A stretch of 64,000 nt of DNA, taken from contig CAVXLF010000023.1 of the NCBI GenBank assembly GCA_963762585.1, positions 85,035 through 149,034 of the forward strand, read 5' to 3'. The stretch is from an uncultured Verrucomicrobiae bacterium. GTDB lineage: Bacteria > Verrucomicrobiota > Verrucomicrobiia > Limisphaerales > UBA11358. A program made the position numbers and the translations under genes. Positions 42,379-45,234 of this stretch are shown one piece after another (the stretch's first letter is position 1; every line of letters begins with the position of its first letter). Under the pieces are notes generated by a model. The model ran no database searches, was not told the origin of the DNA, and was given only the letters and a program-made list of their open reading frames with translations.

Positions 42379-45234
42379 ATGTCTTTGACCGATAATCTGA
42401 CTGAACATCCTGACAAATTTGTCGCCCGTCACATTGGGCCAAACGCCGCCGAGACGCGCGAAATGCTCGCAGCCATCGGTTTCAACAGCCTGGATGTACT
42501 GATTGCCGCCGCCGTGCCGGAAAACATCCGCCTGCGCCGGCCGCTTCAATTGCCCGCCGCCCGGTCTGAACCGGCCGCGCTTGCCGGGCTGAAGGCCATC
42601 GCCTCGCAAAACCAGGTTTTCCGCTCGTACATCGGCATGGGCTATTACGATTGCATCACGCCCGCCGTCATCCAGCGCAACGTTTTGGAAAATCCCGGCT
42701 GGTACACGCAATACACGCCGTACCAGGCCGAAATTTCCCAGGGCCGCCTCGAAGCGCTGCTGAATTTCCAAACCCTGGTTGCCGACCTCACCGGCCTCGA
42801 TATTGCCAATGCCTCGCTCCTCGACGAGGCCACGGCCTGCGCCGAGGCGATGACGATGTGCCACCGGCTCAAGGACGGAAGAAACGTTTTCTTCGTTTCC
42901 GAAACCTGCCATCCGCAAAATCTCGACGTTGTCCGGACCCGGGCGAAGGCGCTTGGGATTGAAATCGTCATTGGCAATCCCGAAAATTTTCAATTCAGCG
43001 AACAAGTCTTCGGCGCGCTGGTGCAGTATCCCGATACGTTCGGCGCGATTCACGATTACTCGGCGTTCGCGGAAAAAGCCCATGCGGCTGGTGCGCTCGT
43101 CACGGTTGCCACGGATTTGCTCGCGCTAACCCTGATCAAGCCGCCCGGCGAATTCGGCGCGGACATCGCCGTCGGCAGCGCGCAACGCTTTGGCGTGCCG
43201 CTGGGTTACGGCGGCCCGCACGCCGCGTTTTTTGCCACGCGCGACGAATTCAAGCGCCACATGCCCGGCCGTCTGGTCGGGGTTTCGAAGGACTCACGCG
43301 GCAAACCCGCTTTGCGCCTTGCGCTGGGCACCCGTGAGCAGCACATCCGCCGCGAAAAGGCCACCAGCAACATCTGCACGGCGCAGGCGTTGCTGGCGAA
43401 CATGGCTTCGATGTATGCCGTCTATCACGGCCCGGAGGGATTGAAGCAAATCGCGCAGCGGGTTCAGGCGCTGACCGGAATTCTCGCCGCCGGCCTGGAA
43501 AAACTCGGCTTCGCCATTTCCGCCGCATCCCGTTTTGGCACGTTGCGAATTGATCTCGGCGAAAAACGCGCCGCTGACATCATCAAGCTTGGCGAAGCGC
43601 ATCGGATGAATTTCCGGGTGATTGACGATCATGCCATTGGCATCTCTCTCGACGAAACCACGGGCGAATCCGACGTCGCTGAAATCTGGCAGGTCTTCAA
43701 CGCGGACGCGGCTCCGACCTTTACCTTTGATGAACTCGCCGGCAATCGGCAATCGGCAATCGGCAATCGGCAATCACCGTTCCTTGCCCACAAGGTTTTC
43801 AATTCGTACCACAGCGAGACCGAGATGATGCGTTACCTCAAACGACTGGAATCGCGCGATCTGTCGCTCACCGCTTCCATGATCCCGCTCGGTTCCTGCA
43901 CCATGAAATTGAATGCCGCGGCGGAAATGTTTCCCATTTCGTGGCCGGAATTTGCAAAAATTCATCCGTTCGCGCCGTTGAAACAAACGCGCGGCTACCA
44001 GACGCTTTTTCAGCAGCTCGAAGACTGGCTCGCGGAAATCACCGGTTTCGCGGGGATTTCGTTGCAACCCAACGCCGGCGCCCAGGGCGAATACACCGGC
44101 CTGCTGGTCATCCGCGCGTATCAGGAATCGCGCGGCGAGGCGCATCGCAACGTCTGCCTGATTCCAACTTCCGCGCACGGCACCAACCCCGCCAGCGCCG
44201 TCATGGCGGGAATGAAAGTGGTTGCCATTGCCTGCGACCCGGAAGGCAACATTGACGTGGCCGACCTCCGTGCCAAGGCCGGGGCGCACAAGCAAGATCT
44301 TGCCTGCCTCATGGTCACGTATCCCTCCACGCACGGTGTGTTTGAGGAAACCATCAAGGAAATTTGTGAAATCATCCACGCCAACGGTGGACAGGTCTAT
44401 ATGGACGGCGCGAATCTGAATGCCCAGGTCGGTCTCTGCCGGCCCGCGGACATTGGCGCGGACGTCTGCCATTTGAATCTGCACAAGACCTTTTGCATTC
44501 CGCACGGCGGCGGCGGGCCGGGCGTCGGCCCGATTGGCGTGGCGGAACATCTGGTTGAATTTTTGCCCGGCCATCCGGTCGTGAATCTCGGTGGCGAAAA
44601 TCCGATCGGCTCCGTGGCCGCTGCGCCGTGGGGTAGCGCGGGCATTCTGCCGATCTCCTGGATGTACGTCGCCATGATGGGCGCCGATGGCCTGACCGAG
44701 GCGACGAAATACGCCATCCTCAATGCCAATTACATTTCCAAGCGGTTGGAAAAGTATTTCCCGACGCTCTACCGCCGCAACGGTCTCGTGGCGCACGAAT
44801 GCATCCTTGATTTGCGCGCGTTCCACAGCGTCACCGCCGAGGACGTGGCGAAACGGCTGATGGATTACGGCTTTCACGCGCCGACGCTGTCATGGCCCGT
44901 CGCCGGCACGCTCATGGTCGAACCGACCGAGAGTGAATCAAAATACGAGCTGGACCGGTTCTGCGATGCGATGATTGCGATTCACGCGGAAATCACCGCC
45001 GTGGAATCCGGTGCGGCGGACGCGAAGAACAATCTGCTCAAGAACGCGCCGCACACGGCGGACCAGATCGCCAGCGACAACTGGAATCGTCCTTACCCGC
45101 GCGAAGCGGCGGCATTTCCGGTGCCCGGTTTGCGCGATTACAAGTTCTGGCCCGCCGTCGGCCGCATTGACAACGTCTATGGCGACCGCAATCCGGTTTG
45201 CACGTGTGTGGGGATGGAGAATTATTCAAGTTGA
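42379..45234 (+). CDS. gcvP: Glycine dehydrogenase (decarboxylating), single-chain P protein
   Basis: ATG 42379 ([21 protein letters not shown]); [57 protein letters not shown] (PLP Lys). Confidence 0.95.
43741..43775. repeat. Perfect tandem heptamer GGCAATC x5 inside gcvP
   Basis: GGCAATC repeated five times without mismatch; translated as [12 protein letters not shown]. Confidence 0.9.

Follow-up and report, generated by a model that had tools for sequence, protein, structure and literature searches.

A heptanucleotide repeat read in frame through the linker of a verrucomicrobial glycine cleavage P-protein

The window analyzed here is a 64,000-nt stretch of DNA from an uncultured Verrucomicrobiae bacterium (contig CAVXLF010000023.1), and coordinates given without a locus name are positions in it. 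Its gcvP gene, which encodes the P-protein of the glycine cleavage system, carries five mismatch-free GGCAATC units in frame at nt 43741–43775 of the plus strand. The array is real and far beyond chance. We read it, with a probability of about three in four, as a heptanucleotide simple sequence repeat (SSR) that was generated by slippage and belongs to a lineage-wide, STRR-like family, is anchored on the codons of a conserved R-x-S motif, and is tolerated as in-frame linker sequence. What makes it interesting is mainly how it compares across orthologues and the heptamer family of Verrucomicrobia, and much less the regulation of gcvP. The idea of phase-variable glycine cleavage, raised in a preliminary description of this DNA, is unsupported, and its place is taken by a comparative example of a non-triplet microsatellite persisting in an important gene.

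The array and its position in the P-protein

The five units were confirmed by direct reading and by Tandem Repeats Finder (TRF), which reports nt 43740–43775 with period 7, 5.1 copies, 100% matches and a score of 72. An independent assembly (L081) is identical over 221 nt, all five units included. With five perfect head-to-tail copies the array is a heptanucleotide long SSR, a class of 7-nt units in at least three copies. The window has five perfect arrays of period 7 with 2.5 or more copies against 0.05 expected from first-order Markov simulations, an excess of about 100-fold, and under the same criteria it has no perfect array of periods 8–12; the array is therefore not a chance product. A two-unit GGCAATC pattern with up to 2 mismatches allowed finds no second site in the window. 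GGCAATC contains no stop codon in any frame of either strand, and RNA structure prediction for the array region gives no structure (z = 0.12). A programmed −1 frameshift site was rejected, as GGCAATC is not a slippery heptamer of the X XXY YYZ type, and a G-quadruplex was rejected because G-tracts are absent from the unit. A literature search on the exact repeat strings returned nothing relevant.

The gcvP coding sequence (nt 42379–45234, plus strand) encodes 951 residues followed by a stop codon. Its product matches the TIGR00461 gcvP equivalog profile at 1514.5 bits (cut-off 859.2), in a single stretch that spans profile positions 1–939 of 939. The solved fused P-proteins of Synechocystis (4LGL, E = 0) and human (6I33) align with it end to end, and it is also homologous to 1WYT. 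The protein is a fused GcvP (aminomethyl-transferring glycine dehydrogenase), in which the PA-like and the PB-like halves are both present.

Many bacteria carry GcvPA and GcvPB as separate polypeptides. The window array is part of the stretch connecting the two homologous halves, although the gene is a normal fused gcvP and nothing points to two-chain expression. The GcvPA model covers residues 22–386 (profile 8–382 of 447), with its extrapolated end near residue 451. The GcvPB model matches residues 478–894, beginning at profile position 54, and residue 47 of Thermus GcvPB is aligned with residue 480. The array encodes residues 455–466, of which the upstream four units contribute the hydrophilic GNRQSAIGN. 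Judged from the model limits and the Thermus alignment, the array sits in the segment equivalent to the GcvPB N-terminal arm, some 5–20 residues from the natural junction. The preliminary description had placed it exactly at the split point between the domains; it does adjoin the junction, but the word "exactly" has to be given up.

The open reading frame (ORF) runs uninterrupted through the array and into the block FLxHxVFNxYHSETE (nt 43777–43836, plus strand), which is conserved in the alignments of orthologues and structural homologues, so that the array is indeed translated within gcvP just upstream of a conserved block. The 3′-most unit provides CGG CAA TCA (nt 43768–43776, plus strand), the codons for R464, Q465 and S466 that open the motif R-x-S-x-F-L-x-H. 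Among 44 orthologues R464 is invariant and S466 is at least 90% conserved. R-x-S is also found in other phyla; Synechocystis has TRQS (...ADLTRQSLYL). As the invariant Arg and the near-invariant Ser come from the 3′ unit, the array is anchored on these conserved codons and extends from them in the 5′ direction into the variable linker. Synechocystis GcvP is 3 residues longer than the window GcvP at the linker, which suggests that the array replaces linker sequence and adds no length. Of the tolerated STRR-like insertion proposed earlier, the tolerated linker repeat is thus well supported, whereas "insertion" does not suit a linker no longer than that of Synechocystis. An AlphaFold model from 44 close orthologues was poor (mean predicted local distance difference test score 53.7, predicted template modeling score 0.38) and was not used. 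We infer exposure or disorder of the linker solely from its sequence variability and its tolerance of insertions; the repeat may be tolerated because it encodes a flexible linker.

Orthologous arrays, copy number and recombination at the linker

The best 120 GcvP homologues (76–99% identity) were listed, and the source names of the closest are metagenome-assembled genomes of the Verrucomicrobiia/Limisphaerales type. All 120 are full length. A contig scan with the whole GcvP protein was dominated by universal GcvP motifs and gave none above 79% identity among the matches listed; close genomes were reached via protein look-ups.

In 58 of 114 clade GcvPs, a run of at least three residues in the linker recurs 7 residues further on, for example HASRITHHASR. 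The DNA of eleven orthologues, from at least three verrucomicrobial groups, has four to five heptamer units at this same gcvP site, with sequences that differ among them. The unit is CGGCAAT in the window, L081, L204, L205 and L210; CGAACTT in L202/L203, whose protein is 96% identical to that of the window outside the linker; CGCACTT in L206; CGCAATT in L207; CGGAAAT in L209; and CGAAAAT in L011 (Chthoniobacterales). Two units stand in a shifted register, GACTTYG in L004 (subdivision 3) and CACGCAT in L208. Arrays in the register of the window fit CGNNNNT, and their 3′ unit gives Arg (CGN) and Ser (TCN).

Copy number was compared in consensus assemblies. Nine distinct alleles fall into the 90% cluster of the window's species, namely P0125, identical to the window protein, and eight others differing from it at 8–12 residues. 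All nine are 951 residues long with the same array peptide, and the peptide is also present in P0129, making ten strain alleles in total, with 0–12 residue differences and a length of 951 residues throughout. L204, L205 and L210, three contigs that represent two distinct genes and are 87–88% identical to the window, have five units with 1–2 substitutions. A comparison of copy number between related strains, which the preliminary description had called for, thus yields five units in every allele compared, and none of more than 130 orthologues has 2 or 8 units, the other copy numbers that would keep the frame.

Compared with L204, the window has a single difference in the 35 positions of the array, whereas the flanks differ at 18–20% and the downstream third codon positions at 45%. 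Each position of a 7-nt unit serves in turn as codon position 1, 2 and 3, and therefore no substitution made throughout the array can be silent. The divergence of the array may lie below that of its flanks because of this property together with homogenization, and the low divergence would be explicable with no nucleic-acid function.

The gcvP tree does not group the unit types, the same unit recurring in distantly placed branches. L202 and the window share 93–95% DNA identity outside a patch of roughly 130 nt that spans the linker and array (window gcvP nt ~1290–1420), and 52–68% within it. P0014 is 88% identical to the window protein overall and 100% identical over residues 431–480 only. Such a mosaic pattern, which also involves P0129, suggests recombinational exchange of linker cassettes, or else chimeric bins; going by the L202 patch and the P0014 mosaic, recombination would also move the linker and array together as one cassette.

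The gcvP linker is hypervariable, its sequence and length differing across phyla. Some orthologues have in-frame linker insertions of 30–50 residues with hairpin-containing DNA, such as CACCGGGCTTCAGCCCGGTG, which encodes NTGLQPG. These are found in L001 (~11480–11600) and L211 (~4380–4500), and in the proteins P0004, P0016, P0036, P0054, P0068, P0071, P0084, P0087, P0093, P0095 and P0120. By their sequence they look like miniature inverted-repeat transposable elements (MITE) or repetitive extragenic palindromes (REP) translated in frame. In the cyanobacterium Floridaenema (L017, ~3000–3119) a different, duplicated insertion (VGVIHECVGVIHELPLH) occupies the same linker position, which shows that insertions are tolerated here outside the Verrucomicrobia as well.

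A second array site in gcvP is the variable loop after FLPG, equivalent to residues ~730–745 of the window protein. Other Verrucomicrobiae have arrays there: CTCTCAA, read as SLDSQPSTLNS, in L012 (12186–12216); ATCAACA, read as SINNQQSTINS, in L018 (12164–12190); and GCAATCA, read as SAISNQQSKISNS, in L050 (12176–12208).

A separate observation concerns L204 (5137–5610) and L205 (1033–1506), where a 157-residue ORF with a GDC-P (PF02347) match precedes the intact gcvP by about 5 kb, overlapping an FtsX gene of the opposite strand. Either a remnant of gcvP or a spurious ORF call could account for it.

Heptamer arrays elsewhere in the window and in metagenome loci

With a minimum TRF score of 40, the window contains 12 non-overlapping arrays, of which six have period 7, one period 14 and one period 21; a second listing used a minimum score of 30. 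All the period-7 arrays other than that in gcvP are intergenic. Three lie just upstream of start codons. ATTTACG x5 (nt 21519–21553) abuts a minus-strand start codon, AAACTTG x4.7 (nt 27127–27159) ends 7 nt before the plus-strand start at nt 27166, and a third heptamer array (nt 21076–21105) is directly upstream of its start codon. Inverted pairs are found as well. AACATCC x4.3 (nt 48842–48871) and TTGGATG x5.3 (nt 48899–48935) are reverse-complementary and lie on either side of a small GC hairpin, in the interval separating two genes of the minus strand. Read from that strand, the RNA of nt 48842–48935 folds into a long hairpin at −56.8 kcal/mol (z = −8.0), and this could be a terminator or processing hairpin made of heptamer repeats. 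GTGACAY (nt 62666–62692) and YYGTCAC (nt 62724–62754) form another intergenic inverted pair, followed by a T-run; nt 62666–62754 likewise fold into a long hairpin, at −46.1 kcal/mol (z = −4.2). Apart from these, a 21-nt unit x2.3 (GCGCGCCTTTGCGGACCGCCTC) is located at nt 38404–38452 inside an 882-residue minus-strand ORF (nt 37130–39778), and a repeat resembling it is found in L001 (5523–5571).

A metagenome scan for (GGCAATC)x3 gave at least 120 loci with at least 127 arrays; no gcvP locus is among the matches listed. The (GGCAATC)n arrays in these matches are mostly 21–37 nt and at most 56 nt long, with continuous lengths. Perfect period-7 arrays with three or more copies number 188 in 738 kb of the listed loci, while periods 5, 6, 8, 9 and 10 give 1–9 perfect arrays. 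The seeded GGCAATC unit accounts for 129 of the 188, and the other 59 represent 44 different units. A lineage-wide excess of period 7 is thus found with diverse units, and the neighboring periods do not share it.

Spanning by stop-to-stop ORFs failed to separate coding from intergenic arrays, since the unit is free of stop codons, and Pfam domain placement was used instead. By this placement, (GGCAATC)n is read in frame between or within the domains of DnaG, methionyl-tRNA synthetase (in the interval from the anticodon-binding to the tRNA_bind domain), UvrA, MutL (in its inter-domain linker), phosphoglucomutase (domains I and II), a xanthine dehydrogenase-like protein (at the Fer2/FAD junction), a PSCyt1/PSCyt2 protein and an MMPL protein (loci L176, L201, L091, L103, L130, L097, L135 and L132). 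In L144 the array is translated from the opposite strand and is followed by a second array, which encodes SEIGNRKSEIGN. Heptamer arrays thus appear to be a lineage-wide verrucomicrobial habit, and gcvP joins many other housekeeping genes whose permissive linkers contain this repeat.

Heptamers are the most abundant class of long SSR in many prokaryotes, which has been attributed to a polymerase register of about 7 nt (Mrazek et al. 2007, as cited in PMC4679880 and PMC4692102). As far as these two papers summarize them, prokaryotic 7-nt long SSRs resemble the present arrays in the heptamer excess, the few copies, the many units and the mostly intergenic location, but their coding-region repeats have units in multiples of three. 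The window, in contrast, has a 7-nt unit in frame in a housekeeping enzyme, at a site conserved across orders. Verrucomicrobia are not mentioned in PMC4679880 and PMC4692102, and a literature search for work on verrucomicrobial heptamer repeats found none. Beggiatoaceae, cyanobacteria and Xanthomonas are described as having heptamer arrays close to start codons and in inverted pairs (PMC4679880, PMC4692102).

The cyanobacterial STRR and the GGGAATC-type repeats of Xanthomonas and Nostoc also have 7-nt units with about four copies preferred, lie near the starts or ends of ORFs, include inverted pairs capable of forming stem-loops, and have no known function (PMC4692102). They differ from the present arrays in unit and in phylum, and the verrucomicrobial units lack G-tracts and G-quadruplex potential. 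The STRR1–3 consensus units of heterocystous cyanobacteria are CCCCAGT, TTGGTCA and CAACAGT. With a GGCAATC unit, diverse other units and a verrucomicrobial host, the array falls outside the cyanobacterial STRR families proper; it is therefore STRR-like and not a member. The TAACTGA repeats of marine Beggiatoaceae are likewise arrays of 2–6 heptamers concentrated directly upstream of start codons, and their occasional read-through in coding regions, also between protein modules, has been discussed (PMC4679880). They use one favored unit with stop codons in one orientation (PMC4679880), whereas the verrucomicrobial arrays have many units and GGCAATC is stop-free throughout.

Verrucomicrobia can accordingly be flagged as heptamer-rich, with arrays that precede start codons, build intergenic hairpins or encode protein linkers, and these arrays are material for testing the hypothesis of 7-nt polymerase slippage. 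They are also relevant to annotation, as heptamer tracts resemble frameshift-prone errors or insertions.

Origin of the array and alternative explanations

In the proposed mechanism, replication slippage or realignment in a 7-nt register would create the arrays and homogenize them. Selection on reading frame and linker length would hold the gcvP array at about five units, and homologous recombination between related lineages would exchange the linker and array as a cassette. The array would have no switching role and would be tolerated linker-coding DNA. Hints of slippage come from the intergenic GGCAATC arrays, which range from 21 to 56 nt, and from arrays being homogeneous within a genome and different between lineages.

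Four points weigh against this explanation. A repeat that stays perfect despite flank divergence of about 20% implies ongoing homogenization or slippage, or selection on the nucleotides or the peptide. The uniform number of about five units, with no variants of two or eight, is odd if slippage is frequent and the linker tolerates long insertions. Consensus assemblies and top-scoring, hence intact, homologues bias against seeing OFF alleles. Finally, the recurrence of one unit in distant branches of the gcvP tree needs recombination or convergence; recombination has some direct support.

The heptamer arrays might instead be an actively maintained class, as their start-proximal copies, inverted-pair hairpins and in-frame copies in linkers of core proteins could be taken to indicate. 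The gcvP site may then have persisted across orders while the unit turned over by concerted evolution and cassettes were swapped. We consider this unlikely. If true, such a dedicated mechanism would be new biology, for which the candidates are a polymerase with a 7-nt realignment register and an RNA- or DNA-binding protein that reads heptamers, and the gcvP array could then still act in translation or in switching at a low rate.

It is quite unlikely that the array is a functional nucleic-acid element, either a set of 7-nt sites in mRNA or DNA bound by a protein that reads heptamers or an unstructured leader-like sequence, that modulates translation of gcvP, for example by pausing at the domain boundary or by internal initiation. 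The array is conserved above its flanks, third codon positions included; however, the lack of silent sites already explains the low divergence. Among the 127 listed arrays taken in the sense orientation, 28 have the ATG of an ORF of at least 120 residues within 40 nt on the 3′ side, 21 of them within 12 nt, compared with 7 of the 127 when they are taken in the opposite orientation and with 10% for positions chosen at random. Many of these arrays end 2–12 nt upstream of the start codon, and three other arrays of the window are placed just upstream of start codons as well. Start-proximal arrays may be a leader or ribosome-binding-region element. The host lineage may use few Shine-Dalgarno sites. 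A precedent is provided by the TAACTGA repeats, which have been proposed as translational regulators, CspB binding one heptamer per protein (PMC4679880). In gcvP, however, the nearest in-frame ATG is 50 nt downstream of the array and not 2–12 nt, the region has no predicted RNA structure, and no candidate binding protein was identified. The orthologues have quite different units at the site, so a sequence-specific reader would not be conserved.

The switch on glycine cleavage put forward in the preliminary description would make gcvP a contingency locus, where slipped-strand gain or loss of one or two units would reversibly frameshift the gene in a subpopulation as a form of bet-hedging, the halves perhaps being produced as separate GcvPA- and GcvPB-like chains. 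We regard this as very unlikely, although the anatomy of the array suits it. The tract is perfect and the unit length is not a multiple of three, and the homogeneity of the arrays suggests some continuing slippage. In silico, gain or loss of one or two units does frameshift gcvP as predicted: alleles of 4 or 7 units stop at residue 481 and those of 3 or 6 units at residues 621–628, while 2, 5 or 8 units keep the frame. The TGA that ends the 4- and 7-unit alleles (nt 43826–43828) overlaps by one base the ATG of M484 (nt 43828–43830), forming TGATG at nt 43826–43830 of the plus strand. Heptamer repeats of this kind are known from neuO of the E. coli K1 prophage CUS-3 (PMC3046976) and from the intragenic SSR of hmw1a of H. 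influenzae (PMC2651432). In both, a 7-nt unit lies inside the ORF, three units encode a 7-residue heptad, and only certain copy numbers keep the frame, neuO being on at copy numbers that are multiples of three (PMC3046976).

The gcvP array shares the anatomy of such systems but not the variability of neuO, a phage-borne surface-modification enzyme gene with 2–93 copies that vary between isolates (PMC3046976). It has only 5 copies, invariant in the ten strain alleles and in L204, L205 and L210, and lies in a core gene of one-carbon metabolism. A housekeeping enzyme of an environmental bacterium falls outside the surface, host-interaction and restriction-modification genes in which contingency loci are expected. 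The predicted tails of the 4-unit and 6-unit alleles, searched for in a set of 5.8 billion proteins, gave no allele from the window's species (~20 contigs sampled). The ten tail matches are alternative-frame ORFs or come from contigs with multiple frameshifts, the shifts being away from the array or in other taxa. P0152, a 468-residue C-terminal half that starts at MLRY on a 135-kb contig, was rejected as an OFF allele; its locus (L212) belongs to a noisy long-read assembly, in which 300 nt contain several frameshifts and the neighboring recQ is split. The best 120 listed orthologues, as given above, are all full length.

Restart of translation after a frameshift fares no better. The internal start or ribosome-binding site suggested for the C-terminal half has no counterpart in the sequence, as no Shine-Dalgarno-like site was found before M483/M484. 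The Met pair belongs to the motif SETEMM, and most clade orthologues have EML and not EMM. A fragment from M484 would miss about 46 residues of the GcvPB N-terminus, and nothing suggests an evolved two-chain expression mode. The same array is also present in dnaG, metG, uvrA and mutL, where on/off switching is implausible. DnaG and MetG are generally regarded as essential, and a stochastic switch-off of their genes is therefore implausible.

Less probable again is selection on the peptide, by which the array peptide, like KTSHFALRTSHF and similar counterparts, would serve as an adaptive sequence of the linker or N-terminal arm, with the DNA repeat as a by-product. The same peptide of 11–12 residues is present in many lineages at 76–99% identity, the linker length is nearly constant, and the last unit encodes the invariant R464 and the near-invariant S466. 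Close relatives nevertheless differ strongly, having NRQSAIG or NFELRTS at 96% identity outside the linker, and other phyla have unrelated sequences at the site. The identical peptide in linkers of unrelated proteins points to the DNA repeat as the cause.

Finally, it is highly improbable that the array is the footprint of a MITE/REP-like mobile element inserted into the linker, as the hairpin-containing linker insertions of some orthologues and the dispersal of GGCAATC over many loci might suggest, because the 127 listed dispersed arrays lack terminal inverted repeats, target-site duplications and shared boundaries, their lengths are continuous from 21 to 56 nt, the window linker shows no net gain over that of Synechocystis (4LGL), and the gcvP units are fixed at the Arg- and Ser-encoding positions, suggesting a local origin.

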